Source: a virus
Virus record (IMG/VR): IMGVR_UViG_3300025096_003663
Coordinates: 17,248-81,247 of that record
Direction: 5' to 3' (one strand)
Length of the DNA stretch: 64,000 bases
Under the pieces are notes generated by a model that worked only from the letters and a program-made list of their open reading frames with translations, ran no database searches and was not told the origin of the DNA. The position numbers and the translations under genes were made by a program. This document shows, piece by piece, positions 19,291 to 46,208 of this stretch. Position 1 is the first letter of the stretch. Each line of letters opens with the position of its first letter.

Positions 19291-21084
19291 ATGCCCTCTG
19301 GCAAAAAGATATCAATAAATTATACAAGCAGGGACTTTGACACCATCAAGAGTGATCTGGTCAACTATGCTAAAAAATACTATTCTGACACTTATCAGGA
19401 TTTCTCGGAAACTGGATTCGGCTCTTTGATGCTGGATACGGTTTCTTATGTGGGAGACATTCTCTCATTCTATGTAGACTACCAGGCGAACGAGGGATAT
19501 CTAGCAAGTGCCATTGAATACGATAATGTGGTCCGCCATGCCCGACAACTAGGATACCGGCTAAACAAGAGCCCTTCTTCCTATGGTACTGTAGCTTTTT
19601 ATATAGTAGTCCCGGCAGTTGTAGATGGACCGAACCGAGCATATATGCCGATCCTCAAGCAGGGGTCCGTTCTCTCTTCCGACAACAACACCAGATTTAC
19701 CCTAACAGAAGATGTGGATTTCGCTAATACCAAAAACAATGTCGTAGTTGCCACAGTAAACAGCACAACCGGTCTGCCGACATCCTATGCAATCCAAGCT
19801 TACGGGCAAGTGGTTTCCGGAAGAATCGTCGAAGAGACAGTTTCAGTCGGCGACTATGAAAGATTTAGGAAAGTCGAATTAGGCGGCACCGATATAGCGG
19901 AAATAGTTTCAATCGAAGATGCCGAAGGGAATGAGTATTTCGAGGTAGAAAACTTATCTCAAAATGTTATTTTCCGAGCAGTAACAAATACCAACTCAGA
20001 CGACAGAGAAAACACCCCATATCTTCTTAAACCACGATATATCTCCAGAAGATTTACGACTGAAAGAGATAGAAATATAACAACAATACAGTTTGGTAGC
20101 GGAGATGAGAGCTCAGATAAGAGTTCAGCCATTTCAGAACCAAGCTCTGTAGTTATGTTTTCCTACGGCAAAGAATATATTTCAGATACAGCAATAGATC
20201 CAACAAGGCTCGTTGATTCTAACAAATTTGGAGTCGCCCCGTCTAACACATCGCTTAGAATAAGATATCGACTCAACAGTGCTGCTAGCAATAATGTGTC
20301 TGCCGGCGGTTTGACATCAATTGAGACATCTAACTTTTCTTTTGAAAACGAAAATGATTTATCTAATATTCTCGTAGAATCTGTAGTATCTTCTGTTGAA
20401 GCAAACAATGAGAGTGCTATTGTTGGCAACATTTCGCTACCAACATCTGAAGAGATAAAAATAAGAAGCTTAGGTATGTTCTCAACACAGCATAGAGCAG
20501 TTACCAGGGAAGATTATATCAACCTCACTTATGCAATGCCAGAAAAGTTTGGAGCCGTGAAGAGAGCAAATCTTATCCAGGACAACAAATCTTTTAAGCG
20601 AAATCTAAATCTTTATATCATCTCAGAAGACGAGAACCAAAAGTTGGTACAGTCCAATCAATCTCTAAAAAGTAACTTAAAAACTTGGCTAAATAAGAAC
20701 AAGATGATATCTGATTCGATTGATATACTAGATGCCAAGATAGTCAACTTTGGCATTGAGTTCGAAGCAATCGGAGAGGTAGACCAAGATAACTTTGACT
20801 TACTATCTGATGCTGTCGAGGCTCTATCTGAAAAATTCACAAAGAACTACGACATCTCGGAGAATATTTACATCTCAGACATCTACTCTACTCTAAAGAA
20901 TGTTGATGGAATCTTGGATGTAACCAGTGCCAAAGCTGTCCTGAAAGTCGGCGGAGTATACTCTGATGTATTTTACGACTTCCAAGAGAACCTTTCGGCA
21001 GACGGAAGAATGATAAACATACCGAATAATGTCATCGTAGAACTTAAGCTGCCAGACATAGACATAAAAGGAGTTATTAGATAA
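19291..21084 (+). CDS. Baseplate wedge subunit gp6-like
   Basis: YTSRDFDTIK, SYVGDILSFYVD, IQFGSG and RAVTREDY motifs. Confidence 0.9.
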   Translation: MPSGKKISINYTSRDFDTIKSDLVNYAKKYYSDTYQDFSETGFGSLMLDTVSYVGDILSFYVDYQANEGYLASAIEYDNVVRHARQLGYRLNKSPSSYGTVAFYIVVPAVVDGPNRAYMPILKQGSVLSSDNNTRFTLTEDVDFANTKNNVVVATVNSTTGLPTSYAIQAYGQVVSGRIVEETVSVGDYERFRKVELGGTDIAEIVSIEDAEGNEYFEVENLSQNVIFRAVTNTNSDDRENTPYLLKPRYISRRFTTERDRNITTIQFGSGDESSDKSSAISEPSSVVMFSYGKEYISDTAIDPTRLVDSNKFGVAPSNTSLRIRYRLNSAASNNVSAGGLTSIETSNFSFENENDLSNILVESVVSSVEANNESAIVGNISLPTSEEIKIRSLGMFSTQHRAVTREDYINLTYAMPEKFGAVKRANLIQDNKSFKRNLNLYIISEDENQKLVQSNQSLKSNLKTWLNKNKMISDSIDILDAKIVNFGIEFEAIGEVDQDNFDLLSDAVEALSEKFTKNYDISENIYISDIYSTLKNVDGILDVTSAKAVLKVGGVYSDVFYDFQENLSADGRMINIPNNVIVELKLPDIDIKGVIR

Positions 21085-22499
21085 TGGCTATTAAGAGATA
21101 TATTGCTGATGCAGATAACACCATAACGGATGCCCTTAAATCAAACCTGATTGACTCCGGAAGCCTAGCAAACATGGGAGAGGCAGACATCCTAGAGGTT
21201 TTCTCAATAAGAGGACAAGCCACATCTTCATCACTAGAGATTTCTCGGGCACTAACAAAGTTCCCAGTATCTACTATCATATCTGACCGAGCGGCAGGCA
21301 CGATACCAAAGAGCGGAAGCACCAACTTTGTGTTACGACTTTCCAATGCTCCTCACTCGGAGACAACCCCAACAAAATTTAATTTAACAGTCCAGCCTAT
21401 TTCCCGCTCTTGGGAGGAGGGATACGGGCTAGATATGGAAGAGTATAAAGACCTCGGGGCATCTAACTGGGTATCCTCATCTACAGGAGTATCTTGGACG
21501 ACAGAGGGAGGGGATTATCTCACTTCTTCAAACTATAATGTATATTTTCCCGGCGGCGACGAAGATTTAGAAGTTGATATCACAAACCTCGTTGAGCAAT
21601 GGATTGATGGAACCTTTTCCAACTATGGAGTGGGGGTTCATCTAACAGCCAGCGAGGAGAACTCTTCTAGAAGCTATTACACGAAAAAGTTCTTCGCCAG
21701 GGACAGCGAGTTTTACTTTAAGCGCCCATATGTCGAAGCAAGATGGGACTCTTCTGTTTCAGACGACAGGAACCAGTTTATTATCAGCAGTTCTCTTTTG
21801 CCGGCTGAGGATAATCTAAATAAGATCTATTTTTATAATAAATTTCGTGGAAAGTTTGTTAATGTGCCGGCAGTTGGAACGGGCAGCATATATGTTAGCC
21901 TCTATTCCGGTTCGGTCGGTCCTCTTGGAAGTAAACTAGATCTCCAAGGTGCCGCCACTTCCATAGAAGGAGCTTATGTCTCGGAAGGGATATATTCCGC
22001 ATCGGTAGCTATTGACACGAGTTTTACTACATTATACGATGTATGGCACGATAATGCTGGAACCGAGTTTTTTACCGGCAGTGCTATCAATCCAGTATCG
22101 TTCAATGCTTCATCGGATGACGAAGACGAAGAATACATCATTAAAATAACTAACTTGAAATCTTCATATTCTAAGAACGAAAAATCACAGTTTAGAATGT
22201 ATGCGAGAACAAAAGATTGGTCACCAAATATTTACACAATCGCCACTTCAGACATAGAGAATACTACAATAAACGATATGTACTACAAGCTCTATAGGAG
22301 CTCTGATTTGTATGAAGTCATTCCGTATGGCACTGGAAGCACGAACCATACGAAGCTTTCTTACGATGATAAGGGAAACTACTTCAATTTTGATATGTCT
22401 CTCCTACAAGAGGGCTACGAATATACATTCAAATTCTTGATAGAAGAGTACGGTGAATTTGTGGAACAGAAAGAAGAATTTAAATTTAGAGTTGATTAA
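21084..22499 (+). CDS. Virion structural protein with DNRLRE/CBM96-like domain
   Basis: ISRSWEEG, W...GGDY, VDITNLVEQW, NYG and F.R.S...RP pattern. Confidence 0.6.
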   Translation: MAIKRYIADADNTITDALKSNLIDSGSLANMGEADILEVFSIRGQATSSSLEISRALTKFPVSTIISDRAAGTIPKSGSTNFVLRLSNAPHSETTPTKFNLTVQPISRSWEEGYGLDMEEYKDLGASNWVSSSTGVSWTTEGGDYLTSSNYNVYFPGGDEDLEVDITNLVEQWIDGTFSNYGVGVHLTASEENSSRSYYTKKFFARDSEFYFKRPYVEARWDSSVSDDRNQFIISSSLLPAEDNLNKIYFYNKFRGKFVNVPAVGTGSIYVSLYSGSVGPLGSKLDLQGAATSIEGAYVSEGIYSASVAIDTSFTTLYDVWHDNAGTEFFTGSAINPVSFNASSDDEDEEYIIKITNLKSSYSKNEKSQFRMYARTKDWSPNIYTIATSDIENTTINDMYYKLYRSSDLYEVIPYGTGSTNHTKLSYDDKGNYFNFDMSLLQEGYEYTFKFLIEEYGEFVEQKEEFKFRVD

Positions 22500-22501
22500 G
22501 A

Positions 22502-25500
22502 ATGGGAATTAAAGATTTATTTAATAACGAGAAAGATACTAAAGTAGTATCTGCTACGAACAAGAAGAATATTTCCGAGGAAATTGAGTCCGAAGGGTAT
22601 TATACATCCGAAATACAGGAAAAGAACAAGTTCGAGCCCCATGTTGACTATTCGCTACCAAGAAACTTTGCTAAGTTTGGTTCGGCGAAGAAGTATTATG
22701 AAGACTCAATAACAGGAATATATACCACTTATCCATTCGATGGCTCAAAGAAAAATAAGACCCAATGGATGCTGACTGCCTCCGGTATTGATAGATATAT
22801 CTTCGAGAACGAATATCCCAGAACGAACGGCTATATAGACTTTTCTTATGGCGGCTGGGGATCTACTTCATTATCTACTGGGTCAACCACAGTGTATGCT
22901 CTTCCGTCCACCACAGAGTACATTACAATATATGGTGGACCAAATAAAGATCCGAATGGTTCCGGCAAAACTCTAGCTAGCATTTTCGCCAACTCAAGCT
23001 CAAACTTTTATGATGTCTCTGATAATCGAGAATCGAATTTAGAATTTGCCGATGGCGGTAACACTGTCGAATGGTGGATGAAGAAAGATGCCTTTGTCGC
23101 TGCTGGCCAGCAAGAAGTTGTTTTTGATTTATGGTCTAGCGGATCAACGACGGGTACCCCTGCCGGCGACTATGGTAGATTTGCTGTTCTCGTTAACAGT
23201 TCTTCGTCGCCGATTCATCTCTCTTATTTGTCTGGAATTTTTGGAATTAATGCTAGTTTTGATGGTGCACTTGCTCCTACAGCGGCATCTATAGCAGACG
23301 GCAATTGGCACCACTATGCCATCAGCGCTAATACCACACCATACGAATATTTGTCTAATACAAAAAGCATTTTGTTTGATGGAGCCGCCGAGTATATCGA
23401 AGTTGGAGCGATAGGAGGCACTGCTGATATCGGCGGCCGAACAAATACATCGCTATCTCTATGGTGCAAGATGACTTCTCTTGCAGTCGCCGCCAATGTT
23501 TATGGAAACGGCACCGCCGGAAACACGAATAGATTAAAGATATTGCCCGACGGCACGTTTCAAGTAACAATGAATAACGCTGGCGGCACTACTTTCCCCG
23601 CGACCGGAGCGGGATTAGTTGCCGCTGATACATGGTGTCATTTGGTTTTTACATACGACAGTTCAGACACGACCAACGGTGCAAAATTATATATCAACGG
23701 GGTCATTCAGAATGGAGCGGGCGACGCAACTAATGGCGCCTTGGATATTCCGACACAGGCACCAGCGCTGGCTAGCGGTCGCGCCGGCACAGCCGCTAGT
23801 CCATTTCCTGGGAATATAGATGAACCGAGTTTTTGGGATAGAACACTTTCCGCATCTGAAGTTCTAGGACTTTATAACAATGGAACTCCAACAGATCTAA
23901 AGGGCATGCCTGGATTAATATGCTGGTATAGGATGGGAGACGATCCTCGCGATAGTACAGACAGCACCGATCCCGCAGCGAGAATTTATGATCAAGTGGG
24001 CAGCAACAACGGCACTCCTGTAGATATGGAATCCACAGATATAGTTGAAGATGTGGCCGGCATCGGGCAGTGGGGGCGCATAAAAGCAGACTTGTATGTG
24101 GACGGTGTGTATAAAGATTCAGTTTCTGGGAGCGGAATCAATGAAGTAACAGGAGCACTAATCGCCAATGTTGGATCTTATTACGAGGCTAGGGCAGCAG
24201 ACGATTTATCTGTTGAGTTTACTGGATCTGTTGTTCCCGGATGGTGTAAACTCTCCGCCTCTATTGACGAATTTCGTTTCTGGAAAACTGCTAGGACTGA
24301 TAAGCAAATAGGAATGAATTGGTTTACTCAAGTGGGTGGCGGCACAAACATTGACGATGCAAACACCGACCTCGGTGTCTATTATAAGTTCAACGAAGGA
24401 ATCACTCAAACTGTCAGCATTGACTCGAAAGTCTTAGACTATTCTGGTCGATTCTCTGATGGTACCTGGACTGGGTATAGCGCTGGAGCAAGGAGCACTG
24501 GCTCTGCCATGGTGGATGCCGGTGCCACAGATTCAGAGTTCAAGGATCCCATTATCTACTCTTTCCACCCAGAAGTGGTTTCACTATCGACGACCAAAGC
24601 GATGGAAGGCACAGAATATGATTATGGGAATGCTTCTAGTATTTATTACAGCATCCCGTCTTGGATCATAGAAGAGGACGACACAAGAGGAGATTTATTA
24701 AACCTAACTCAAATAATCTCAAGCTTCTTCGACTCTCTCCAACTGAAGATCCAGGATATCCCAAGGCTCAAAGATGTTCAGTATGTCTCATCCTCTCAAA
24801 AGCCTTATCCGTTTACGAAGCGAGGAATAGAGTCGCTAGGCTTCACAGCCCCAGATTTATTTGTAGAATCAACTCTCCTCGAAAATGTAGCTTCCAGAAA
24901 TGAGACAGAGAATTTCGACGAGAAAATATACAATATCAAAAATGTGATATATCAGAACATCTACAACAATCTTCTGTATATCTACAAGACAAAGGGAACT
25001 GCTAAATCTTTTAGAAACCTAATGAGATGCTACGGCATTGATGAAGAGTTGATGAGAGTCAATCTCTACATCGACGGAGCCACTTACGATCTGGAAGACG
25101 GCTATAAGATAGAAGGCTTGGATAAGAAGTTCGTCAACTTTGCCGGACCAGATAGATTCAATGGCTCTGTTTACCAGACAGCCTCTTCCGACATATCCAA
25201 CTCGGTTTCGTTCCTCACAGCTTCCACTTTCGATCATCCAATGACTGTCGAAGTCGAGGCAATATTTCCAAAGAAATTCACAAAAGAGGACACTCTCTAT
25301 TTCGAGACAAACTTTGTTTCCTCTTCTCTATTCGGCATTCATACAGCCAAAGATGATGGAAGCGACTATACTTGGGAGACAGGAGATCCCGCCAACTTCC
25401 AAGTATATTCGGTAAGAAACTCAACTGAATCTGCTCACGGAAAGTTCGTTCTAAAGAGCACAAGCGAAAATTCGCCTTTCCCAACTCTGGAAACAGAGAT

Positions 25501-26998
25501 CTACAAAGACCTCTATGATAATACTAACTGGAATTTTGCCGTAAGGCTCAAGCAAGAGTATGAGATACTAAACACGGGCTCAGTCCCGATTCCAGCTAGC
25601 GACAACTCATACATCCTAGAGTTCTATGGTGTCGAGACAGAAGGAGACTATGTAAGAAATGAGTTTATCCTAACCTCATCCCTTGCTTATGCTTCTGGTT
25701 CAAACTTTATCAAGAATAATAAGAGGCTCTACACAGGAGCTCACCGAACTAACTTCACTGGCTCTACATTGGAGAAGACGGATGTTAAGATAACTTCTAA
25801 TCGAGTTTGGTACAGCTATCTAGACAGCGAAGTCATGAGGGTCCACGGCAAAGATTCTACAAACTACGGCACGAAATATCCGTTCGAGAACACATATGCC
25901 CTATACAAGGAGATAGGTGTTGAGATTCCCTCGATTGATACTCTCGCTCTCCATTGGGGATATAACACCCTAAGCAGCTCGGATGGCGGCAGCGGTCCAG
26001 GATACACAGCAGGCTTCCATGTCGATGATCTATCTTCTGGCTCAACAGCAGCAAATGTTACTTATGGCTCTCTCGATGATGTCTTGAAGAAGGAACACCC
26101 AGGACGAGGAAACTTCTTCCTAGCATCAGACACCGATGCTATCACTAAAGAGTATCTCTCGAATGCTAAGCTTCAAGGTCCGGAAACTATGCAGTCCGAT
26201 GATCTGATTCAGATAATCAACGGGCAAGACGATCAAATATTCACAAGAGAATCCAGACCACAACAATTCAGGTATGCTATTGAGAAAGGAATGCACCAGG
26301 TTATTTCGGACGAAATGATAAATGTTTTCGGCTCGATCATCGACTTCAACAATCTTATCGGAGAGCCCGTAAACAGGTACCGCCAAGATTATCAGGATCT
26401 AGGAAAGCTAAGACAGATATTCTTCAGCCGAGTAAAGAACACTCCGAATCTCATAAAATATGTAGACTTCTTCAAATGGATCGACGGCTCCATCACAGAG
26501 ATGCTACAACAGCTTATTCCAGCTACTTCAAACTTTTCACCAGATGTGGCAACCGTTGTCGAGAGTCACATACTCGAAAGAAATAAATACTACAACAAGT
26601 TTCCGACAATAGAATTCAAAGAAAACATCCCAGAAGATGCGGCAAGAGGAATCAATGAACTTTGCTATCCCTGGAAAGAGGGTCATGCTCCACAAAACGG
26701 GAAGCAAAACACTAGCTGTTTTTGGTGGAGAAACAGAGCAACCCCAGGACAACTCCCTCTAAACCCAGACCCAGACTCTGTTCGTTCCGGAGTAATAAGC
26801 ATTGCCCACAGCTCATTTCAGAGAGAACTAAATACTCTATACCGATTTTCTGGTGACGGCATTCTAAATACTGATGAGGATGCTAATGATCTAAGTGTGG
26901 TGAAATCAGTTATTAAGTTTGGAGCCAAGGGATTTATTTCCATTTCTGCTGATGATGTAGCTCTGGAAGAGGAGGATTGTACAGATGGGGAAGAATAA
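22502..26998 (+). CDS. Large virion protein with LamG/ConA-like domains, one nested inside another
   Basis: TVEWW, WHHYA, LYVDG and SIDEFRFW (outer); WCHLV, LYING and GNIDEPSFW (inner). Confidence 0.75.
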   Translation: MGIKDLFNNEKDTKVVSATNKKNISEEIESEGYYTSEIQEKNKFEPHVDYSLPRNFAKFGSAKKYYEDSITGIYTTYPFDGSKKNKTQWMLTASGIDRYIFENEYPRTNGYIDFSYGGWGSTSLSTGSTTVYALPSTTEYITIYGGPNKDPNGSGKTLASIFANSSSNFYDVSDNRESNLEFADGGNTVEWWMKKDAFVAAGQQEVVFDLWSSGSTTGTPAGDYGRFAVLVNSSSSPIHLSYLSGIFGINASFDGALAPTAASIADGNWHHYAISANTTPYEYLSNTKSILFDGAAEYIEVGAIGGTADIGGRTNTSLSLWCKMTSLAVAANVYGNGTAGNTNRLKILPDGTFQVTMNNAGGTTFPATGAGLVAADTWCHLVFTYDSSDTTNGAKLYINGVIQNGAGDATNGALDIPTQAPALASGRAGTAASPFPGNIDEPSFWDRTLSASEVLGLYNNGTPTDLKGMPGLICWYRMGDDPRDSTDSTDPAARIYDQVGSNNGTPVDMESTDIVEDVAGIGQWGRIKADLYVDGVYKDSVSGSGINEVTGALIANVGSYYEARAADDLSVEFTGSVVPGWCKLSASIDEFRFWKTARTDKQIGMNWFTQVGGGTNIDDANTDLGVYYKFNEGITQTVSIDSKVLDYSGRFSDGTWTGYSAGARSTGSAMVDAGATDSEFKDPIIYSFHPEVVSLSTTKAMEGTEYDYGNASSIYYSIPSWIIEEDDTRGDLLNLTQIISSFFDSLQLKIQDIPRLKDVQYVSSSQKPYPFTKRGIESLGFTAPDLFVESTLLENVASRNETENFDEKIYNIKNVIYQNIYNNLLYIYKTKGTAKSFRNLMRCYGIDEELMRVNLYIDGATYDLEDGYKIEGLDKKFVNFAGPDRFNGSVYQTASSDISNSVSFLTASTFDHPMTVEVEAIFPKKFTKEDTLYFETNFVSSSLFGIHTAKDDGSDYTWETGDPANFQVYSVRNSTESAHGKFVLKSTSENSPFPTLETEIYKDLYDNTNWNFAVRLKQEYEILNTGSVPIPASDNSYILEFYGVETEGDYVRNEFILTSSLAYASGSNFIKNNKRLYTGAHRTNFTGSTLEKTDVKITSNRVWYSYLDSEVMRVHGKDSTNYGTKYPFENTYALYKEIGVEIPSIDTLALHWGYNTLSSSDGGSGPGYTAGFHVDDLSSGSTAANVTYGSLDDVLKKEHPGRGNFFLASDTDAITKEYLSNAKLQGPETMQSDDLIQIINGQDDQIFTRESRPQQFRYAIEKGMHQVISDEMINVFGSIIDFNNLIGEPVNRYRQDYQDLGKLRQIFFSRVKNTPNLIKYVDFFKWIDGSITEMLQQLIPATSNFSPDVATVVESHILERNKYYNKFPTIEFKENIPEDAARGINELCYPWKEGHAPQNGKQNTSCFWWRNRATPGQLPLNPDPDSVRSGVISIAHSSFQRELNTLYRFSGDGILNTDEDANDLSVVKSVIKFGAKGFISISADDVALEEEDCTDGEE

Positions 26999-27146
26999 TA
27001 TCGGAAAGAATAACTCTTTCAAAAACAAGGTGAAGGGATTCGCTGCCACTATCGGAACAGACGATGAAGACACAAATTATATATTAGCAGAGAACGGTGA
27101 TGTTATTACGACAGAAGTCGGGGAAGAATTGACGATTGAATCCTAA
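26985..27146 (+). CDS. Small 53-aa protein missing from the ORF track
   Basis: GAGGAGG upstream; MGKNNIGKNNSFK...YILAENGDVITTEVGEELTIES; I.tE.G..I.tE repeats are common in small phage virion proteins. Confidence 0.65.
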   Translation: MGKNNIGKNNSFKNKVKGFAATIGTDDEDTNYILAENGDVITTEVGEELTIES

Positions 27147-27173
27147 TTACAACAAACAGAACGGAGATTTCCA

Positions 27174-27674: not shown

Positions 27675-27983
27675 GTGTCTTTTATTTTTTTACCAAACCT
27701 AAAAATCATTTCTGGAGTCACTTCGACTGGCGGAGACATTTTCGACAATCCAGTGGCTTCATCATTTACAACATTTGAATACTCTGGCTGGGATGGAACA
27801 GTCGCGAACCCAATAACAAGTTCTGATTTTTCAGTCTATCAAAACTCGGCAACAGCCAGTTATCAGTATCCAGCCTGGGACGGCACAGTTGCCAACCCAA
27901 TAACAAGTTCTGATTTTTCAGTCTATCAAAACTCGGCAACAGCCAGTTATGAGTACCCTAGCTGGGAAACTGGTTCCGCATAA
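27675..27983 (+). CDS. Small repeat protein (29-aa tandem repeat)
   Basis: GTG start with AGGAG SD; WDGTVANPITSSDFSVYQNSATASY occurs twice. Confidence 0.65.
   Translation: MSFIFLPNLKIISGVTSTGGDIFDNPVASSFTTFEYSGWDGTVANPITSSDFSVYQNSATASYQYPAWDGTVANPITSSDFSVYQNSATASYEYPSWETGSA
27789..27965 (+). repeat. 87-bp tandem repeat (2 copies plus a partial)
   Basis: 57 bp identical at 27807-27863 and 27894-27950. Confidence 0.9.
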
Positions 27984-28036: not shown

Positions 28037-31000
28037 ATGACAGACAGTTTCTTAAAAATAGCACCATTCCAATTATTTAGTTCATCAGTAGATACCGGCT
28101 ACAATGCCGAGATCTCAGCTAGCTTTAAGCCGGGCATCGATATAACTAATATGAAAACAGATCGATACTCCGATCTGAATGATGCTCCAATGCAAGGACC
28201 GTTTACCGAGAAGTATGTGGGCGGAAGCCAATACAGACATGTCCCTCTGAACGACGGCAACGATACACCGCTTACTCGCCCAGAGCTATACAATATTACA
28301 ATGACATCCAGTGTCCTCAAAGTTATAGGACCAGATAATATTGATGTCAATCGAGCACGAGCTCCTTACTTTCGCGATGGCTTCTCCAAAAGACCAGTCA
28401 ACATAGCGAATATACATACGACCGGCTCCGATGTAGGAAACTACCAGCATGATTACCAGGTTGTACAGACGGTAAGCAGAACTACAAACAACCGAGCATT
28501 CACCGAGGCAACTGGTTCAGGCTTCGCTCAATATCTCACAACACAATTTGTGAGTGGAGCCAAAGATCCGAATCGGACACTTCCAGACTTCGATATAGAC
28601 GGCAAGAATGAGTTCGTCTTCGTCAATCGTTTCAATGCCCCAGGAGGCACTCAGGTAAGCTCTAGGGGTGTTTTAGATACATATGCCGAGGAGTATGCCC
28701 CCGCCAACGATATCAACACTAGGAACTACACAGTTCGCTCTCAGCTACGTTCTGATTTAGCAAGACACACACCGAAAGCTGGTACTGGAATACCGACACA
28801 ATATCATAACGACAACAGGAATCCGAAGATAGATTTTACAAAGGATCCTATAATAGTTCCTGATCGATATGCTTCTCGAATTTTGACAGAACGAAAATTA
28901 ACAGCTAGCGATGCCTCCACTGACGATGTTTATGGATATGCAGTATCTATGGTTTCCGGATCTGATGGTATTTACATCTTGGTAGGTGCCAGGGAGAACG
29001 ATTCATCGGATACAAACAACGGCGCCGCTTATATTTACCAGGTAACCAACTCAGGAATATTATCTGAGCAGAAACTAACAGCAAGCGATGGCTCGCCCCA
29101 AACCAACCAGCTTTTTGGAACTTCTGTTTCTATCACTTCCGGCACCGATGGAATTTATGCCATCGTCGGAGCGCTAGGTGATGATGAAGCAGGCACATAC
29201 GATGGTGCCGCCTACATCTATCACTCAACTAGTGCTGGAGTGTTGACCGAGCAAAAGCTAACAGCTAGCGATCCTCCTCTTTCCAATTATCGCTATTTTG
29301 GCAACTCTGTTTCCATCGCCTCCGGCACTGATGGCATCTATCTCTCTGTGGGCGCCATCGGAGATGATGAAGCTGGATCTAATGATGGCGGCGCTTATCT
29401 CTATCACTCGACAAGTGCCGGCATCTTGACAGAACTTAAGCTAACAGCTAGCGATGCACCCACTTCAGCCGCTAGAAACTTTGGCAACTCTGTTTCAGTC
29501 GCCTCCGGTACTGATGGCATTTACATCTCAGTTGGTGCATATGGCGATAGCGAAGTTGGTCCAGATTATGGTGCCGCTTATCTTTATCATTCAACAAGTG
29601 CTGGACCCTTGACTGAGCTTAAGCTAACAGCTAGCGATGCAGGCTCCTCAGCGACACCGCGTTTTGGCACTTCCACCTCTATTGCCTCCGGCACTGACGG
29701 CATTTATTTACTTGTCGGAGCCCGAGGAGATGATGAAGTTGGTCTAAACGACGGCGCCGCTTATCTCTATCACTCAACAAGTGCTGGACCCTTGACAGAA
29801 CTTAAGTTGACAGCAAGCGATGAGCCTGCTTCAGACGCTAGAAACTTTGGCAACTCTGTTTCAGTCGCCTCCGGCACTGACGGCATCTATTCACTGGTGG
29901 GCGCCGATTTGGAACCAGACGATGTTGGAATATTACAAGGCGCCGCCTATATTTATCACTCAACAGCTACCGCTTTGATAGCCCAGAAGGTAACACCCAG
30001 CGATGGCTCGGAATCAATAGCTCAAAGGTTTGGATCGTCAGTATCGATTGTCTTGACTACCAATCAAGTGGGTGCTAGCGACGTGTATGTTCTAGCAGGC
30101 GCCAGCGGCGATGATGTCGGACCAGGCGGCACCGATGCAGGTGCCGCATATCTCTATAGCGGCTCAAACAGCCAATTGAGATATAGTAGTGAATATTCTC
30201 AGTCATATGATAACGGATTTATAACTCATGCCATACCTCGGTCTGATTTGAAATATAGATGGATTCAAGCATCAGCCCTAACAACCGAGGCAGAATTACC
30301 AGGATATCAACACAGTAGCCCCACTCCATTCGGACCCTACGACGATATAAACTATGTTTTAGATAGTGGAAATCCGGCACTTCATAATATAATCGGCGAT
30401 GTAGTCGAGCCATCGAGGGGAGACTTCATTGGTATTTCTGGAACAGGATTAGATAAATCAGGCATAGATATCCAGACTACACTCGGATCAATAAACCTCC
30501 TTTCCAAGACAGCAGCCACCATTTTTAATGTTTACAATGGACCTTACCAATATTCTTCCTGGAATCAAGTAAGAAACAGCTACAACCCAATCGTCAGACA
30601 GCTTGTAAGGGAGAGTATTCTATCCCTCGCCAACCCACAGAAGACAACAACAAACTCCTTGGGAAATCAGGTATTTTCGAAAAGAAGTGATGGGGTAACA
30701 AACTATAAAGAGCCAGTTGTGAGCGAAAATGCTCATCCCGTTGAGCATAATCTTCTGGTCCGACCAGACCTCACCTCTCAGGAGACAATCCCTTCATCTT
30801 TGAAGTATTCTTTCGCCAACAATCTATCTTCTTTTACTCGGCAGTCTATCGTAAATAAGGCTAACATCCAGCAACAGAACCAGAGCTCTATGTATGACGA
30901 TATCAAAGACTACTATCTAGAGTCTCAGCCAGGCGGAGATAATCCGGTAGAGAAGTTGCTCGACATCAAATATTCTCAAGGATTATATCCAGCCGTAGCA

Positions 31001-34000: not shown

Positions 34001-35674
34001 CGACTTGGCTCTTCTTCTCTCGGCGAAGATGCTGGCAAGTCATATATCTACCATAGCCGAAGTTTGGGTGTTTCAGAGCAAATAATGAGTGCTTCGGACG
34101 GACTTCCTTATCAATATTTTGGAACCTCAGTCTCCTTGATCAGCTCTTCGATTTTGCCGGATGAATTATACTCAACAATGGGAGCGTCAACAGCATCTTT
34201 CGCTGTCTCTGGATCCGGAGCGGGATATATGTTCGCTGGAACATTCGGCTCTCTGTCTGGCACAATCGGCATTCAAAATGTCCAACAAGATTACAGGCAG
34301 CACGGTAAGCTATTCGGCTTACCGCTAGAAGATGCTTACGATCCAGCTTATGCCGCTTACACCCCGCCAATGTTTTATGGCGAGGCAGTAGCAAGAATAA
34401 AGTTCACCCCAACCGTAACTGACAACTACACACTTGATGAGATCATAGAACAGGCGACGGTAGAAGAAATAATAACTGTTGACTCAAATCGAGTAGCTAC
34501 AGTGAACGGCTTTGTAAAATCACTTACGACATTACAAGAGCAAAACAGAATGCCCGTCAGCTCATCAGTCAACTTATTCGGAAAGTATTTCGAGAAAGGG
34601 GCAACTTGGAATGCCGAATCGGGACAAGCAACAACTATCGACGGTGCTACAGCCCAGCCATCATGGGTCGTATCAACCAAGTTTGAAAGCCCAGTTTTGG
34701 ATGTTTCTAGTAGCAAATACAACGATCTTTATTCGGCTCACCTCCCTGATGCTGATATGGCGACAAACTTCAATTTCTACCCAGGCGAGATAAACAGAAC
34801 AAACCCAAGAACAATGTGGACAAGCTACGGCAAAACTCCAACTGGAACAAAAGCTGTTACATTGGAACTGAGAGAATCATTTCCCCACAAAGTGCTGGGA
34901 CGAGCAAGTGCTACGACTGGCTCCCTAATGAGGCAATGTAAGTTCGATAAGGGAGTGACGAAGAAGGTCGGCACCGTCCGAGGCACCAAGGAGATCAGCG
35001 AAGCTATCGTTATGATTCCTTACTTGGACAAGGCAGTAAAGCATGTAACCACTCAGGTCGAGGGCTACAACCTCATTCGACTGAATAGGTCGATATACAA
35101 TATCCAGAAGAAAAACTTTGAGAAAGAAGGTATAGCAATAAAGACAGCCGCTCGCCGAAATAACGAACAGATCGAGAGCACTACATTTACAGATATGTTC
35201 CAGGCAATGGAGAACTACAATGTGCCTCCAAATATGGATTTCCTGAAGTATGACGACATTGCCCCGTTCGCTATGTATTTTTTCGAGTTCAACCAAACAC
35301 TAGACCAGGATGATCTAACGGACATCTGGCAAGGGACTATGCCAAAGGCAGCCCTAAAGGTGGAGAAGGACGAGGTAACGATAGAACATCAAGTAGATCC
35401 GTATGAGTTCTTTGGATACATAAAGGACCAAACATTGATCGGGCAGATGAAGTTTTTCACCTTCAAAGTAAAGAAGAAGGCAAAACAAAATTATTATGAG
35501 ATAACCAAGGATGCCACAGACGATAGTAGATTTAGATTTACATTCTCCAGCGATCCTGAAGCAACAGCAGTCCCACCACAGGGAAGCTATAACTGGCCGT
35601 ATGATTATTTCTCTCTTGTAGAAGGAATTGACATCGAAGCAAAATATACTTTGAAAAATGAGGATGAGGGGTAA
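28037..35674 (+). CDS. Giant (2545 aa) virion protein with two FG-GAP beta-propellers and a reelin-like domain
   Basis: Two blocks of seven KLTASD..FG.SVS..VGA..GAAYLY repeats. Confidence 0.8.
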   Translation: MTDSFLKIAPFQLFSSSVDTGYNAEISASFKPGIDITNMKTDRYSDLNDAPMQGPFTEKYVGGSQYRHVPLNDGNDTPLTRPELYNITMTSSVLKVIGPDNIDVNRARAPYFRDGFSKRPVNIANIHTTGSDVGNYQHDYQVVQTVSRTTNNRAFTEATGSGFAQYLTTQFVSGAKDPNRTLPDFDIDGKNEFVFVNRFNAPGGTQVSSRGVLDTYAEEYAPANDINTRNYTVRSQLRSDLARHTPKAGTGIPTQYHNDNRNPKIDFTKDPIIVPDRYASRILTERKLTASDASTDDVYGYAVSMVSGSDGIYILVGARENDSSDTNNGAAYIYQVTNSGILSEQKLTASDGSPQTNQLFGTSVSITSGTDGIYAIVGALGDDEAGTYDGAAYIYHSTSAGVLTEQKLTASDPPLSNYRYFGNSVSIASGTDGIYLSVGAIGDDEAGSNDGGAYLYHSTSAGILTELKLTASDAPTSAARNFGNSVSVASGTDGIYISVGAYGDSEVGPDYGAAYLYHSTSAGPLTELKLTASDAGSSATPRFGTSTSIASGTDGIYLLVGARGDDEVGLNDGAAYLYHSTSAGPLTELKLTASDEPASDARNFGNSVSVASGTDGIYSLVGADLEPDDVGILQGAAYIYHSTATALIAQKVTPSDGSESIAQRFGSSVSIVLTTNQVGASDVYVLAGASGDDVGPGGTDAGAAYLYSGSNSQLRYSSEYSQSYDNGFITHAIPRSDLKYRWIQASALTTEAELPGYQHSSPTPFGPYDDINYVLDSGNPALHNIIGDVVEPSRGDFIGISGTGLDKSGIDIQTTLGSINLLSKTAATIFNVYNGPYQYSSWNQVRNSYNPIVRQLVRESILSLANPQKTTTNSLGNQVFSKRSDGVTNYKEPVVSENAHPVEHNLLVRPDLTSQETIPSSLKYSFANNLSSFTRQSIVNKANIQQQNQSSMYDDIKDYYLESQPGGDNPVEKLLDIKYSQGLYPAVANTFINITRERTEYSEVAGTGSNGYDRIFGKQRTFYKEDEIRNSNAPNSQGFAPSENVIDFSSSYDFSENISTNFINDDSSIVRLDDTLGSNAFCFGTNPGSSPSTRFLQWKDTFLTSSVSSDISLSFEITRGTYGTFDGTVTLEEPSFLQPGKAVYVQYRLSDGGAWQTADTILPGDLTAGNYSLTASSFDPGGPAFVRISQEVFSGQGTSNGYQFDNYAIRNLNITASTVDTNKPALNFDSMATDGIKSFPESASYRDYNGELMQDSDETMFSTSPLPSLSYLELYNIKVNQSSSGYVERLTEQIAGENSWYNTYNDYAVDVRPHTKNKSIVPEFRMSDHIPYYIVDKGNDFRAPNKKILSLNGASITSSAESVSSELFDNNFVTKYVQSSNTARFASMTDEHEDVASVSNVSFTCKGIKKLLPYNGFYPKDRTVQIGNLLSESLSTNVEGTYEGVEGSFPKQGWQGILKPLMSPGILYNSIKSGIAVDYPIYTGSIPGLVAGDNTPSDFRLDVGPNYRLPFETLVDVKGNLPEGTENPIRLVSAFVTDESDFNTDQLFNYKSVWNGQKTDLFELGMHNFLAETVDFFLPQSGLSNFRSQPENEWDRFKEGTSYYMDIVLRDSVEMNKFIEYSGSGEIVENLKFGASDGELDDRFGISVDTVEGSSGEGIYALVGSVIGKMYLFQNRFDTTGWKQLESIEVSPLDTPYMSVSIASGTDGIYMLAGNSFDSSLPYAANQQGAAYLYHSSSTGISKQALSASDGASFTMPRFGTSVSVASGTDGIYALVGQPRDIGGTMNAGAAYLFHSKSSEPFYIDRLGLTNQKWQTKITSSDVGSIDLFGQSVSVAYGSDTAYMLIGSTGDADGGSGAGAAYLFHSKSGTPFYVDNTGLTNQEWQTKITASDSTAGTNLGDSVSIVSGTDALYMAVGGTDESTIASDAGAAYLFHSQSGIPFYIDSTGLTNQEWQTKLTASDAAADDNFGNSISNVVGAEGIYTLVGTRLGSSSLGEDAGKSYIYHSRSLGVSEQIMSASDGLPYQYFGTSVSLISSSILPDELYSTMGASTASFAVSGSGAGYMFAGTFGSLSGTIGIQNVQQDYRQHGKLFGLPLEDAYDPAYAAYTPPMFYGEAVARIKFTPTVTDNYTLDEIIEQATVEEIITVDSNRVATVNGFVKSLTTLQEQNRMPVSSSVNLFGKYFEKGATWNAESGQATTIDGATAQPSWVVSTKFESPVLDVSSSKYNDLYSAHLPDADMATNFNFYPGEINRTNPRTMWTSYGKTPTGTKAVTLELRESFPHKVLGRASATTGSLMRQCKFDKGVTKKVGTVRGTKEISEAIVMIPYLDKAVKHVTTQVEGYNLIRLNRSIYNIQKKNFEKEGIAIKTAARRNNEQIESTTFTDMFQAMENYNVPPNMDFLKYDDIAPFAMYFFEFNQTLDQDDLTDIWQGTMPKAALKVEKDEVTIEHQVDPYEFFGYIKDQTLIGQMKFFTFKVKKKAKQNYYEITKDATDDSRFRFTFSSDPEATAVPPQGSYNWPYDYFSLVEGIDIEAKYTLKNEDEG
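28885..30165 (+). repeat. FG-GAP repeat block 1 (7 units, mostly 183 bp)
   Basis: Recurrent ctaacagctagcgat; near-identical stretches at 29471/29837 and 29588/29771. Confidence 0.9.
32921..34240 (+). repeat. FG-GAP repeat block 2 (7 units; three carry a PFY.D..GLTNQ.WQ insert)
   Basis: Protein-level repeats in the ORF translation. Confidence 0.85.
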
Positions 35675-43059: not shown

Positions 43060-43060
43060 T

Positions 43061-43068
43061 ACTATTTA
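43061..43068 (+). promoter_or_regulatory. Candidate late promoter ACTATTTA
   Basis: Intergenic; the same octamer occurs at 58658 and 60491. Confidence 0.6.
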
Positions 43069-43088
43069 TTACGATAGGAGTGAATAAA

Positions 43089-44027: not shown

Positions 44028-44037
44028 AGGTTAAATA

Positions 44038-45078
44038 ATGGCAACAGTTTATAAAACATTTCTCAATAACGATGTCGCTTCGACACGAACTTTACTACAC
44101 GAATCGGTCCCGGTCACGGGCACCATCGTCTCAGGCACATACGCCGACACTAACATCAAGAACTACTCCCACGGACTCTTCCAGTCTGTGTATGACTATC
44201 CATACCTTAGTTCGTCAGCGAATCACATCTTTGATATCACATGCGGATACTCTAGCACTTCTCCATTATCCGCCTCCGCTGTAACAGACGGTGTTGCTGC
44301 TAGCGACATTAAAGACAAAATCAATATGTACAACCAGATGGCTCAAGTTCTAGTAGGGCACGATGTCGAAGGAAATATCCAAGAGTTCGATCAGGACGGA
44401 GATATTTCAGGCGGCGGCACTAAGATGAAAGAAGCCTATGTTCTAAACTTCGCTCGCCTCTTGACAAAAGACGAAATAAAGAAGGGCTCGTTTTCTCTCA
44501 AGGTTGCCACAGGCTCGGCAAACGATCCGGTTGACTTCGCAGACTTGCTGACGATATCTGACTACGGAGCGGAAAACGATTATCGAGTAAACTCACCAGC
44601 AGCAGAATATGGAATTCTGTATACATCATCTGCTACTCCAAGCTCAGACTCTGGGGTTGGACTGCTGTATTATCAAGCTGGAGTTGCTGTGCTTACAGCA
44701 TCACTTTTCGACGGTGCCCTGCTGGCTGACTCTGAAACATATACTGGCTCTCTCTCGGCATCCAACATTCAGTCTAATGCTGATGCTATTCGAGCCAGGA
44801 TCTACGATGTGGCATACAATAATACGACAGAACTAAACTCATCAGTTTATTTTTGCCGAGTGAATCACAACGAGTTTAACTATAGTGCTAATCCTACATA
44901 CCTGAGCAGCAGTAAGATCGTAGTGAAAGACCAAGCCACGGATGCTCCTGTTTCGTATACGACTACTGTCGGACTGTATTCTGCCGATAATGAACTTTTA
45001 GCAGTCGCGAAAGTTTCGGAGCCTCTTAAGAAGGATCCGACGAATGAGCTGATTCTTCGGGTAAGACTAGATTACTAG
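44038..45078 (+). CDS. Tail/baseplate structural protein
   Basis: C-terminal FNYSANPTY..TTVGLY..NELLAVAK..P.KK..RLDY motif. Confidence 0.7.
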   Translation: MATVYKTFLNNDVASTRTLLHESVPVTGTIVSGTYADTNIKNYSHGLFQSVYDYPYLSSSANHIFDITCGYSSTSPLSASAVTDGVAASDIKDKINMYNQMAQVLVGHDVEGNIQEFDQDGDISGGGTKMKEAYVLNFARLLTKDEIKKGSFSLKVATGSANDPVDFADLLTISDYGAENDYRVNSPAAEYGILYTSSATPSSDSGVGLLYYQAGVAVLTASLFDGALLADSETYTGSLSASNIQSNADAIRARIYDVAYNNTTELNSSVYFCRVNHNEFNYSANPTYLSSSKIVVKDQATDAPVSYTTTVGLYSADNELLAVAKVSEPLKKDPTNELILRVRLDY

Positions 45079-45089
45079 AAACATGAATT

Positions 45090-46208
45090 ATGTCGTTTTA
45101 CAAATTCGATCCTAGCGATATTCTCTACAACAGGATAAGAACTTATCCTCGGGTCCACTTTGATATTCACACGGGCTCGATATATTATAACGAGAATGTC
45201 AACAAGTTTGGAACCCCAAACGGAAATGTATCACTCCAGGAGCTAGCTACACTGAAAGCATCTGGGGGAGACTATTATACTTTCGTTACGAAGGATAGTG
45301 GACTTGCAGCTTTCAATACTGTATCCACCACGGCTTTTAACGGACTGAGTTTTGGCGATGTGATTACTTCGTCTCTCCCACAAACAGCTTCGATCTCTAT
45401 TGAATACCACGAAGAGGGAGACAGTCGCCTTCACATTGATGCTCTGAGAACTCACACGGACAACTATACTTACCTAAGCAATCATTATGCTTTTAGTTCC
45501 TCTTTAGGAGATAAGGACACACAATCGCTAACATTGGTGAGCTTCCCGTCCATTTTCTACGGCTCATCTATCAAGAAGGGGAGTGTAGATTTAAAATTTT
45601 ATATCACTGGAACACTGATCGGGCAACTTAGAGATGAATACGAAAACGGCGAACTTATACAAGTTGGTCCGCCTGGTAGCACGGGGTCGGGGAGTGTTGC
45701 CGGTGTAGCATACTACGGAGAGGGGCTTCTCCTCCTCACGGGAAGCTGGAACATCACAGAAGAGTCTCAAGATTTTTATGACGGACTGGATTATCCAAAG
45801 TGGAAGTATTTTGCCTCGCCAGGAATTCCGCCATTCCCAGAAACAGAATCAACGAATTATTCGATTGATCTCAGCGGCACGAACTATGTTCCAGTGGTTA
45901 CAATGTTGGCTCATGCTAAAAAGGCTCATCTAAACCACTCGAACAATCCCACGGTCATTACTTATGGACAAGCTAATACCAGAGACACTGGAACTCTTGG
46001 GTTTTATGAGCGAACGGACTTAGATATTAAAAATGTAGCCAAATACCCGTATAATGAAGATACGGGCTCTTTTAAGAAAGAAACATATGTCTCCAAAATT
46101 GGAATATACGACGAAAACAGAAACTTGATTGGGATTGCAAAACTGGCAACCCCAGTAAGAAAAAGAGAAAATGATAACTTCACTTTCAAAATGAAAATGG
46201 ATTTTTAG
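45090..46208 (+). CDS. Tail/baseplate structural protein, paralogue of 44038..45078
   Basis: IKKGS, NHSNNPT and YVSKIGIYD..NLIGIAKLATPVRK..KMDF motifs shared with the upstream gene. Confidence 0.7.
   Translation: MSFYKFDPSDILYNRIRTYPRVHFDIHTGSIYYNENVNKFGTPNGNVSLQELATLKASGGDYYTFVTKDSGLAAFNTVSTTAFNGLSFGDVITSSLPQTASISIEYHEEGDSRLHIDALRTHTDNYTYLSNHYAFSSSLGDKDTQSLTLVSFPSIFYGSSIKKGSVDLKFYITGTLIGQLRDEYENGELIQVGPPGSTGSGSVAGVAYYGEGLLLLTGSWNITEESQDFYDGLDYPKWKYFASPGIPPFPETESTNYSIDLSGTNYVPVVTMLAHAKKAHLNHSNNPTVITYGQANTRDTGTLGFYERTDLDIKNVAKYPYNEDTGSFKKETYVSKIGIYDENRNLIGIAKLATPVRKRENDNFTFKMKMDF

Follow-up and report, generated by a model that had tools for sequence, protein, structure and literature searches.

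We found that short triplets of the form [ST][GAS][ST] exceed the number expected from composition in seven proteins encoded by a 64-kb window (the whole stretch of DNA analysed here) of an 81-kb contig, IMG/VR record IMGVR_UViG_3300025096_003663, from an uncultured marine T4-like phage, and that this excess is limited to the distal tail module. These triplets may be a conserved element with a structural or assembly role in the beta-rich distal-tail proteins of this lineage, a reading to which we give somewhat less than an even chance.

Results

A Ser/Thr triplet is enriched in distal tail proteins

Overlapping matches to [ST][GAS][ST] were counted in the 45 ORF products of the window and compared with residue shuffles, either over the whole protein or confined to blocks of 10, 20, 40 or 80 residues (Table 1; proteins are named by the first position of their ORFs). 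In the whole-protein shuffle, seven proteins reached p≤0.0055, where chance alone would give ~0.25: 21084 (14 matches vs. 4.8 expected), 22502 (23 vs. 11.5), 27675 (8 vs. 2.6), 28037 (53 vs. 26.2), 44038 (12 vs. 3.6), 45090 (11 vs. 3.0) and 61923 (16 vs. 7.8). All seven remained significant at every block size, and the five without FG-GAP repeats together held 68 matches vs. 29.0 expected (k=20 block shuffle). The original prediction had named nine motif-dense proteins; its enrichment survives composition-preserving shuffles in seven of them, and no significant excess was found in 27174 (6 vs. 4.4) or 60763 (3 vs. 1.5). All 12 strings it quoted from the 471-aa 21084 protein are present, amounting to 14 overlapping matches at 12 places.

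Table 1. Features of the window and its upstream flank, with triplet matches observed vs. expected from residue shuffles
Feature	Position	Strand	Matches and remarks
Sugar-nucleotide cluster	760..6765	+	formyltransferase, FkbM methyltransferase, methyltransferase, DegT-type aminotransferase, GDP-fucose-synthase-like reductase, GDP-mannose 4,6-dehydratase
Two GT4 genes, just upstream of window	contig positions 13352-14683 and 14662-16644		
gp6-like baseplate wedge, negative case	19291..21084	+	0 vs. 4.3 (k=20)
471-aa multi-beta-sandwich tail/baseplate protein, directly after the wedge	21084..22499	+	14 vs. 5.5
SSS, residues 235-237 of 21084 protein, conserved-site example	21786..21794	+	motif in 116/118 homologs; coil in model
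TGS, residues 331-333 of 21084 protein, Gly-centred example	22074..22082	+	117/118 homologs; G332 invariant; within strand 328-335
1498-aa tail protein, Laminin_G_3 domain	22502..26998	+	23 vs. 13.3
102-aa protein, internal 29-residue duplication	27675..27983	+	8 vs. 2.5
2545-aa giant FG-GAP protein	28037..35674	+	53 vs. 29
First FG-GAP block, residues 280-660 of 28037 protein	28874..30016	+	15 vs. 7.3
Second FG-GAP block, residues 1691-2080 of 28037 protein	33107..34276	+	16 vs. 8.5
346-aa tail protein	44038..45078	+	12 vs. 4.3
372-aa paralog of 44038 protein	45090..46208	+	11 vs. 3.4; C-terminal ~50 residues common to both
FG-GAP-like repeat protein, truncated by contig end	61923..63998	+	16 vs. 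6.9

The Ser/Thr-rich tail proteins 36788 (13 vs. 12.2), 40819 (3 vs. 4.0) and 43080 (3 vs. 3.8) were at chance, and orthologs of the gp6-like wedge (n=50) showed no excess (mean 2.3 vs. 2.9 expected). Terminase (1 vs. 1.8), portal (3 vs. 1.8) and primase (0 vs. 0.6) lay near composition in the whole-protein shuffle and Rad50 fell under it (0 vs. 3.6); the motif had been called sparse in these four, which holds for raw density and, relative to composition, for Rad50 alone. BLAST among the motif-bearing proteins gave just two links, 28037 to 61923 and 44038 to 45090, and the 21084 and 44038 families had no profile similarity (probability 0.9%); as far as such comparisons detect, the motif occurs in families without homology to one another, as had been claimed.

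The motif could be refined to hydrophobic-[TS]-[GAS]-Ser: position –1 is hydrophobic in 56% of cases vs. 31% in the background, positions –1 to –3 hold aromatic or aliphatic residues, and the third position is Ser 113 times and Thr 35 times. In a motif-blind scan, TGS ranked first in excess among the tripeptides occurring in the five non-FG-GAP proteins (15 vs. 2.25). Among the eight possible arrangements of the two residue classes, compared in the seven proteins already chosen for enrichment, the named order was highest (137 vs. 64.7, ratio 2.12, z 9.6) and the remaining orders had ratios of 1.2-1.5. N-x-S/T was not enriched in these data (58 vs. 64.2). Diverse codons encode the motif and homologs retain its sites, which points to selection at the protein level and agrees with the earlier suggestion that the motif is selected.

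The sites are fixed in position

Homologs of the 21084 protein (n=118) carry a mean of 13.3 motifs vs. 5.5 expected, and nine of its 14 sites are kept in at least 75% of them. The entire excess of the family resides in 11 conserved alignment columns, elsewhere the count being 4.3 vs. 4.0 (first 60 sequences); we looked in this family for turnover of sites with maintained load, as a glycan shield would suggest, and did not find it. Among the Gly-centred sites G78 and G332 are invariant and G267, G276 and G418 are at least 90% conserved; Gly is absent among the variants listed for sites 131 and 305, and Gly-centred and Ala/Ser-centred sites rarely swap. In an AF2 model of the protein (pLDDT 83), nine of the 12 motif places are in or next to a strand (four just before, two at the end, three inside) and three are in coil. 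Column entropy is 0.5-0.9 at the motif, compared with a mean of 1.32 over the family and 2.06 just downstream, and the 44038 family shows the same pattern, low at the motif and high downstream. Foldseek matched the 21084 model to Ig/FN3/CBM-like domains, part of it resembling carbohydrate-binding modules (8wab, TM 0.68 on target).

All 19 orthologs of 22502 have z>2, and nine sites within residues 585-1179 are kept in 12-19 of the 19; in 44038, each of six sites is retained by 48-54 of 54 homologs. Database homologs number at least 4,420 for one of the proteins and at least 8,000 for another. The 44038 model has a pLDDT of 61, with four of the six conserved sites in low-confidence segments: sites 27, 32, 58 and 290 lie in sequence-invariant segments with pLDDT<50 in the monomer model, as expected of assembly interfaces. 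Six of the eight matches in 27675 fall inside its two repeat copies.

The 28037 protein matches Pfam FG-GAP_2 (PF14312; E 2.4e-74, 10 stretches), with 31 of its 53 motifs in its two FG-GAP regions, to which 61923 is similar. Each blade of the first block has LTASD and an SG[ST] triplet, mirroring, without difference, the LTASD and SGS of a consensus built from 2,570 blades (best 150 of 22,329 family members). Motifs are present in the blades as originally described, but they are part of the repeat's consensus and an ordinary property of it. The 150 library proteins behind this consensus may come from phages or from cells.

The excess recurs in relatives

In the complete relative G004, ~12 tail-module ORFs held 133 matches vs. 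65.4 expected, and the remaining 153, non-tail ORFs were at chance (150 vs. 142.6), with no motif avoidance; the sheath had 18 vs. 10.9 and the gp6-like protein 2 vs. 2.5. The major capsid protein of this relative, one of the 153, is not enriched (6 vs. 5.6), and the proposed genome-wide virion glycan shield is therefore not supported. The excess recurs in the same distal tail module of Flavobacterium phage immuto, whose fibre proteins carry triplets inside obvious fibrous repeats, and of Microcystis phage Mel-JY01; the cultured clade members infect Bacteroidota and Cyanobacteria, and the clade is marine and freshwater, with thousands of metagenomic homologs. No excess was found in T4 (82 vs. 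88.6, 30 proteins; TGS 2 vs. 6.9, 20 tail and capsid proteins), T4 Hoc (6 vs. 5.0), P-SSM2 (157 vs. 157.3, 58 ORFs) or RM378 (45 vs. 36.9, 28 proteins), and in the syntenic jumbo phage LR756508 the triplet excess is mostly missing, homologs of the same tail proteins having no TGS excess (2 vs. 2.9).

The phage glycan pathway

The predicted glycan pathway is present, and all motif-bearing relatives examined conserve its soluble glycosyltransferases. Membrane-like segments are missing from all 11 glycan-cluster proteins. One enzyme of the GT4 pair is 443 aa long and the other, which combines GT4 and GT2, 660 aa; their genes lie ~22 kb from those of the candidate substrates. GT4 (PF00534) was found in five of five large relatives, orthologs of the 660-aa enzyme in four of them (50-59% identity), the fifth contig being 66% complete; immuto and Mel-JY01 keep both enzymes, adjacent, at 33-38% identity. 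The GT4 domain of the 660-aa enzyme has a clear ortholog in all four motif-bearing genomes searched and none in T4, P-SSM2 or LR756508; RM378 gave only a 61-residue match (E 1.7e-5). RM378 does encode a protein homologous to the 443-aa enzyme (25% identity) and a UDP-galactopyranose mutase, yet its motif is not enriched.

No NCBIfam model reached its cut-off for either transferase; the sole adhesin-transferase match was SdgA, at 16 bits vs. a cut-off of 800, and GtfA/GtfB models were absent among the NCBIfam and solved-structure matches of either GT4. The closest solved relative of the 443-aa enzyme is, weakly, the chlorovirus transferase B736L (E 2.6e-7), and both enzymes look like ordinary polysaccharide GT4/GT2 enzymes. 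In immuto DNA, fdPreQ1 fully replaces dG (345,000 per 10^6 nucleotides), and the nucleoside peaks match three canonical nucleosides with a new peak for dG, the available part of the report giving no sugar-modified nucleoside (PMC10516641). On that partial source, and for this cultured relative, the GT4 transferases are unlikely to act on DNA and are not accounted for by DNA modification.

Discussion

We tentatively favour a structural or assembly role. The triplet would be placed at the junction of a conserved beta-strand and a variable loop; at Gly-centred sites the Gly, whose invariance suggests as much, would form a bulge or tight turn, the middle residue of Ala/Ser-centred sites would need only small size, and we infer that the hydroxyls cap strands or make hydrogen-bonded inter-subunit contacts in the assembled baseplate and fibres. 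This role is consistent with the restriction of the 21084 excess to position-conserved columns, the invariant or nearly invariant Gly, the strand contacts of most places in the model and the low entropy at the motif, and with the invariant low-pLDDT segments of 44038, the FG-GAP consensus, the fibrous repeats of immuto, the unenriched G004 capsid and the lack of avoidance in non-tail proteins. A purely structural device, however, should not be lineage-specific across unrelated folds, and tail proteins of T4, P-SSM2 and RM378, comparably Ser/Thr- and beta-rich, lack the excess, as LR756508 homologs of the same proteins lack that of TGS; the first rank of TGS also argues against it, as does the preference for Ser at the third position, despite Thr being the better strand former. 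A second reading, which is possible but unlikely, is that the triplets are O-glycosylation acceptors, the soluble GT4 pair modifying, in the cytoplasm, the Ser at position three of tail proteins that are folded or still folding. The strand-loop junction would then be a structural sequon, and variable sugar-nucleotide genes would supply and elaborate the sugar, here a GDP-mannose-derived deoxyhexose or an N-formyl-aminodeoxyhexose, with methylation. The strong preference for Ser at the third position, the occurrence of the motif across unrelated families, the variable and probably surface loops downstream, the missing membrane-like segments, the probable exclusion of DNA as a target in immuto (on the part of PMC10516641 available) and the conserved GT4 pair all speak for acceptors; and because immuto and Mel-JY01 have hosts from different phyla, a target intrinsic to the phage is favoured. 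The expected association of motif load with glycan genes is seen in that four of four motif-bearing phages searched have the pair, but every positive lies within one clade, so this co-distribution may stem from a single evolutionary event, and RM378 is discordant. Against acceptors, moreover, are the lack of site turnover, the rarity of exchange between Gly- and Ala/Ser-centred sites, the unenriched capsid and several unenriched Ser/Thr-rich tail proteins, the lack of avoidance in cytoplasmic proteins, the ordinary character of the transferases and the generic FG-GAP instances. It is doubtful, although conceivable, that cytoplasmic O-glycosylation of distal tail proteins is at work throughout a widespread T4-like clade, by means of a core GT4 pair acting at hydrophobic-[TS]-[GAS]-Ser in strand-loop junctions, with variable sugar genes diversifying the glycan.

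Reading of the triplet by some other shared trans-acting factor, or its use as a ligand-contact element, strikes us as distinctly improbable. A tail/fibre assembly chaperone, another modifying enzyme or weak carbohydrate-binding patches, with hydroxyls beside aromatics, could be involved; a common interactor would yield one motif across unrelated families in one lineage and one module, and the hydrophobic and aromatic or aliphatic residues before the motif and the CBM-like part of the 21084 model are compatible with it. No candidate chaperone or enzyme was found, though, the invariant Gly sites are explained no better than by a structural role, and no specific prediction testable here follows. 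We disfavour, as very improbable, a statistical by-product in which Ser/Thr/Gly loop residues segregate from strand residues below the block size and repeats and a broad post hoc motif add to the count. Other residue-class orders are indeed mildly enriched, the counts of 27675, 28037 and 61923 come partly from internal repeats, and orthologs are non-independent samples; the same test was nevertheless null in tail proteins of T4, P-SSM2 and RM378 and in T4 Hoc, the five non-FG-GAP proteins and the motif-blind scan show the excess, and it is replicated in immuto and Mel-JY01.

Among known systems, mycobacteriophage capsid and tail-tube subunits are reportedly modified, as shown by mass spectrometry by Freeman et al. 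2023 in Cell Host Microbe. Glycosylation of mycobacteriophage virions is also touched on in PMC12582341 and PMC11256854. There as here, phage-encoded soluble glycosyltransferases occur and cytoplasmic modification of structural proteins before or during assembly is proposed, but here distal tail proteins are the candidates, the relative's capsid is not enriched, the host group differs and the candidate system is read from sequence. Bacterial adhesins are hyper-glycosylated in the cytoplasm by the autotransporter heptosyltransferases TibC/Aah, whose sequon is structural (strand, short loop, strand), by HMW1C, and by GtfA/GtfB, a pair of GT4-type proteins acting on serine-rich repeat proteins. 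The likeness lies in many sites per beta-rich surface protein, with Ser the acceptor there and the candidate acceptor here; unlike those systems, the phage transferase genes do not lie beside their candidate substrates, and neither enzyme matched GtfA/GtfB or TibC among solved structures; no sequence link emerged. Chloroviruses encode a sugar pathway of their own, with a GDP-mannose dehydratase and methylated deoxyhexoses, and glycosylate their major capsid protein by N-linkage at atypical Asn sequons; the virus-encoded pathway and the B736L relationship are shared, but the N-linked sites are not matched by any N-x-S/T enrichment here.

If the triplets are structural, they are helpful in recognising these tail-protein families, and they warn that a motif that passes composition controls, crosses families and lies beside a glycan pathway need not be a sequon. 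Since two cultured phages share the motif and the enzymes, the question is answerable cheaply. Should the serines prove to be glycosylated, the triplet would become the first acceptor motif to be defined for the glycosylation of phage tails, and one readable from sequence. It would hold for a clade that is abundant and for the most part uncultured, the sugar clusters of marine myophages, long unexplained, would gain a function, and host recognition, virion stability and decay in the sea would all be affected.

Triplet excess in seven proteins

The original prediction held that [ST][GAS][ST] triplets are a candidate glycosylation sequon peppering a subset of virion proteins, and all 12 strings that it quoted for the 471-aa 21084 protein (window proteins are named here by gene start) are present, with 14 overlapping matches. 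The window takes in bases 17248–81247 of a virus contig 81,247 bp long. We shuffled 45 ORF products of the window 2,000 times apiece with composition preserved (counts are given throughout as observed vs. expected) and found p≤0.0055 in seven of them (21084, 22502, 27675, 28037, 44038, 45090, and 61923; about 0.25 expected by chance). These are seven of the nine proteins first singled out; no excess was found in 27174 (6 vs. 4.4) or 60763 (3 vs. 1.5). The excess persisted in all seven when shuffling was confined to blocks of 10, 20, 40, or 80 residues, which preserves local composition. The motif was at chance in the Ser/Thr-rich tail proteins 36788, 40819, and 43080, the gp6-like wedge carried none (0 vs. 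4.3, blocks of 20 residues), and the non-structural proteins of the window showed no avoidance (23 vs. 28.8, z −1.15).

The predicted order of the two residue classes scored highest of the eight possible (137 vs. 64.7, ratio 2.12, z 9.6; 1.2–1.5 for the others), although the size of this excess is inflated by selection because it was measured on proteins pre-chosen for enrichment. When we enumerated tripeptides without presupposing the motif, TGS ranked first among those occurring in the five non-FG-GAP proteins (15 vs. 2.25, z 8.5; other high scorers had counts of 2–6). The residue preceding the motif was hydrophobic in 56% of cases vs. a 31% background, and the third position was Ser in 113 and Thr in 35. 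Codons were diverse at all three motif positions, with serine encoded by both TCN and AGY, indicating that selection acts on the protein and ruling out a DNA-level cause. An N-linked sequon was likewise rejected, as N-x-S/T was not enriched in the seven proteins (58 vs. 64.2).

Conserved sites in families without detectable kinship

A tblastn search of 50,697 cultured-phage records gave nothing at E≤1e-5 for the 21084 protein; at least 4,420 metagenomic relatives were found at E≤0.001 among 8,000 candidates scored, along with 53 IMG/VR loci. We aligned 118 of the 120 homologs listed, leaving out two outside 440–520 aa, and found the motif class kept in at least 75% of them at 9 of 14 sites, for example at SSS235 (116/118), TGS331 (117/118), and TGS417 (115/118). 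Homologs averaged 13.3 matches vs. 5.5 expected (z>2 in 96%, n=118), and in the first 60 sequences 11 conserved alignment columns held the entire excess, with 4.3 vs. 4.0 elsewhere. All 19 orthologs of the 22502 protein drawn from IMG/VR loci (36–65% identity) had z>2, and nine sites in the conserved C-terminal half were kept in 12–19 of them. For the 44038 protein, 54 homologs hand-picked from 120 listed kept six sites in 48–54 sequences, with z>2 in 55/55 when the query is counted. Enrichment was found in none of 50 gp6-like orthologs.

That the motif crosses unrelated proteins, as had been proposed, was borne out: BLAST among the enriched proteins gave just two links, one joining 28037 to 61923 and the other the C-terminal 50 residues of 44038 to 45090, and when the 21084 and 44038 families were compared profile to profile, the probability was 0.9%. 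Together these results rule out common descent at detectable depth. The 44038 copy of the C-terminal module recurs in Flavobacterium phage immuto, Microcystis phage Mel-JY01, RM378, and jumbo phage LR756508, which marks it as a tail-module domain conserved among far-T4-like phages.

In the predicted structure of the 21084 protein (pLDDT 83, pTM 0.79), beta-sandwich domains resembling Ig, FN3, and carbohydrate-binding modules follow one another in a chain. By its secondary-structure string, the 12 motif places fall directly before a strand (4), at a strand end (2), inside a strand (3), or in coil (3). Column entropy in this family is low at the motif and peaks just downstream (2.06 vs. a family mean of 1.32), and the 44038 family repeats this conserved-then-variable pattern. 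The 44038 protein is poorly modelled (pLDDT 61; no Foldseek match at E≤0.001), and of its six conserved sites four lie in segments that are invariant and have a pLDDT under 50, which suggests that these segments fold only in the assembly.

The excess lies in the tail module

In G004, a relative of 187 kb that is rated complete, we scanned a non-overlapping set of 165 out of 193 ORFs. The tail module (12 ORFs) carried 133 motifs vs. 65.4, and the remaining 153 ORFs 150 vs. 142.6; the sheath had 18 vs. 10.9 and the major capsid protein 6 vs. 5.6. The excess is therefore limited to the tail module rather than virion-wide, and the genome-wide virion glycan shield first envisaged is unsupported under any reading. 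Nor is the motif avoided by proteins outside the virion.

In the 28037 protein, two FG-GAP blocks carry 31 of 53 motifs, and the middle, 1,030 residues long, does not depart from chance (12 vs. 9.2). Solved structures included no relatives of the FG-GAP block. With a model derived from the first block's six blades, we extracted 2,570 blades from the best 150 of the 22,329 family members that an unbiased search of the library turned up. The motifs noticed earlier in the FG-GAP blades are indeed there; the consensus of the 2,570 blades itself contains LTASD and SGS, however, so this share of the finding is a property of the repeat.

Distribution across phages

The same shuffle procedure was applied to chosen proteins or ORFs of other phages, of which Mel-JY01 and immuto are the nearest cultured ones by portal (about 38% identity).

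Motif and TGS counts in other phages, observed vs. expected
Phage	Sample	Motif	TGS
T4	30 chosen proteins	82 vs. 88.6	2 vs. 6.9 (20 tail and capsid proteins)
T4 Hoc	one protein	6 vs. 5.0	
P-SSM2	58 ORFs of a 100-kb stretch, among them tail proteins of 5,195 and 2,506 aa (Ser+Thr ~19–20%)	157 vs. 157.3	9 vs. 15.2
RM378	28 of 49 annotated CDS in 45 kb	45 vs. 36.9	2 vs. 1.6 (8 tail-region CDS)
LR756508 (syntenic jumbo phage)	38 ORFs in 50 kb	51 vs. 39.4	2 vs. 2.9
immuto	tail module		26 vs. 5.9
Mel-JY01	tail module		16 vs. 2.8

Both immuto and Mel-JY01 showed the excess in the same, tail, module. In immuto it comprised gp111 (7 vs. 2.8), gp109 (17 vs. 9.9), gp108 (10 vs. 4.0), gp106 (8 vs. 2.9), gp105 (10 vs. 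4.7), gp102 (14 vs. 8.4), and gp101 (58 vs. 31.0), with plain fibrous repeats housing the triplets of gp101 and gp102 and the gp6-like wedge unenriched (3 vs. 3.6); in Mel-JY01, six tail proteins reached z 2.5–4.6 and the gp6-like protein had 2 vs. 2.4. Only the 22502-like protein stood out in LR756508 (11 vs. 5.0), and in RM378 the protein homologous to 44038 had one motif vs. 2.2. A generic trait of Ig-like or fibre proteins is ruled out, since T4 Hoc and the T4 fibres lack the excess.

Glycosyltransferases and neighbouring genes

Features by location ("window", positions in the window; L001, numbering of the whole contig; G003, a relative of the phage)
Feature	Location	Observation
Malate synthase beside isocitrate lyase	L001:5552-8446, upstream of window	Pfam E 1.9e-96 and 1.2e-98; a complete glyoxylate shunt on the phage
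442-aa protein	L001:9867-11195	PIN domain and PhoH-like ATPase in one protein
Metalloprotease-like protein	L001:11510-12205	weak anthrax-lethal-factor-type match (E 2e-4, 21.6 bits vs. cut-off 27.4); probably just a zinc-protease-like fold
Two adjacent glycosyltransferase genes	just upstream of window	443-aa GT4; 660-aa GT4+GT2 fusion
Ortholog of 660-aa transferase	G003:C1:17143-18441	within a 977-aa open frame with one in-frame TAA; could be two genes, sequencing error, or readthrough
Sugar-nucleotide cluster	left end of window	formyltransferase, FkbM methyltransferase, second methyltransferase, DegT-type aminotransferase, GDP-fucose-synthase-like reductase, GDP-mannose 4,6-dehydratase
Formyltransferase of sugar cluster	window 760-1446	NCBIfam matches all under cut-off
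2645-aa protein	window 10959-18896	no Pfam match; weak match to syntenic 2226-aa ORF of G004 (27% over 148 residues)
102-aa protein	window 27675-27983	29 residues duplicated in tandem almost exactly (copies at about 39-67 and 68-96)
C-terminal module (~50 residues) common to 44038 and 45090 proteins	window 44938-45078 and 46059-46208	
1049-aa fusion	window 47659-50808	calcineurin-like phosphoesterase (Mre11/SbcD-type) N-terminus and SMC/Rad50-type ATPase; homologous region of LR756508 is separate ORFs
Minus-strand gene	window 59714-60403 (−)	sole sizeable minus-strand gene of head module; weak DnaJ-domain match (E 2.7e-4, under cut-off)
T4-type portal, large terminase, prohead protease	window	
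gp6-like baseplate wedge	window	
Primase	window	
RuvC-like	window	weak match just under cut-off
Run of very large tail proteins	window	

None of the 11 proteins of the sugar cluster and transferase region has a membrane-like hydrophobic segment. GT4 (PF00534) occurs in all five large relatives, and orthologs of the 660-aa enzyme (50–59% identity) in four; the fifth contig is 66% complete and starts inside a GT4 match. GDP-mannose dehydratase-type genes are present in four of the five with variable content, and the set holds no sugar-gene-free relative. The two transferase genes lie side by side in both immuto and Mel-JY01. The GT4 domain of the 660-aa enzyme had no match in LR756508 and a single 61-residue match in RM378 (E 1.7e-5); P-SSM2 matched only in the GT2 part, and T4 was absent from the matches listed in two tblastn searches with the transferases. 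Homologs of the 443-aa enzyme were found in RM378 (25% identity) and LR756508 (29% identity), its closest solved relative is a chlorovirus transferase (E 2.6e-7), and neither enzyme reached an NCBIfam model cut-off. Four genomes have both the motif and a clear ortholog to the GT4 domain of the 660-aa enzyme and four have neither, so that the two track each other, although the positives all belong to one clade and the co-distribution could be a single evolutionary event.

In the published nucleoside analysis of immuto DNA, the peaks described are three canonical nucleosides and a new one, fdPreQ1, replacing dG, and no sugar-modified nucleoside is reported there (PMC10516641); on that account, the transferases of immuto are unlikely to serve DNA modification. 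The same source proposes that the immuto PF00551 formyltransferase DpdN formylates preQ1 in DNA (PMC10516641), so the formyltransferase of the window could serve either a sugar or a DNA base.

What the triplets may do

We tentatively favor a structural or assembly role for the triplets, because the excess comes entirely from sites of fixed position, those centred on Gly keep that residue invariant, the sites lie at strand boundaries, and the capsid is uninvolved; the FG-GAP and fibre repeats also demonstrate that triplets of this kind can be ordinary elements of a fold. Several observations nevertheless argue for a shared trans-acting factor over a purely structural cause: the motif spans unrelated families in a single lineage, prefers Ser, is missing from the equally Ser/Thr-rich tail proteins of three outgroup phages, is largely missing from the syntenic relative, and accompanies a conserved pair of soluble transferases that probably do not target DNA. 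Such a factor could act through the triplets as O-glycosylation acceptor sites, a reading that we consider rather unlikely; comparison with solved structures revealed no resemblance of either enzyme to known protein O-glycosyltransferases. It is quite improbable that the triplets are instead a contact for another shared factor or ligand, and that the excess is a statistical by-product is very improbable.

Multi-site cytoplasmic glycosylation is known for beta-rich bacterial adhesins, and this is the closest mechanistic analogue of the O-glycosylation reading. In phages, virion glycosylation is described as established for mycobacteriophages (PMC12582341; PMC11256854). The literature searched on phage tail glycosylation and on Mel-JY01, chiefly open-access articles, yielded no description for this clade. 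If O-glycosylation does take place, what would be new is a short and defined acceptor motif, a location on proteins of the distal tail, and an occurrence in a marine and freshwater T4-like clade.
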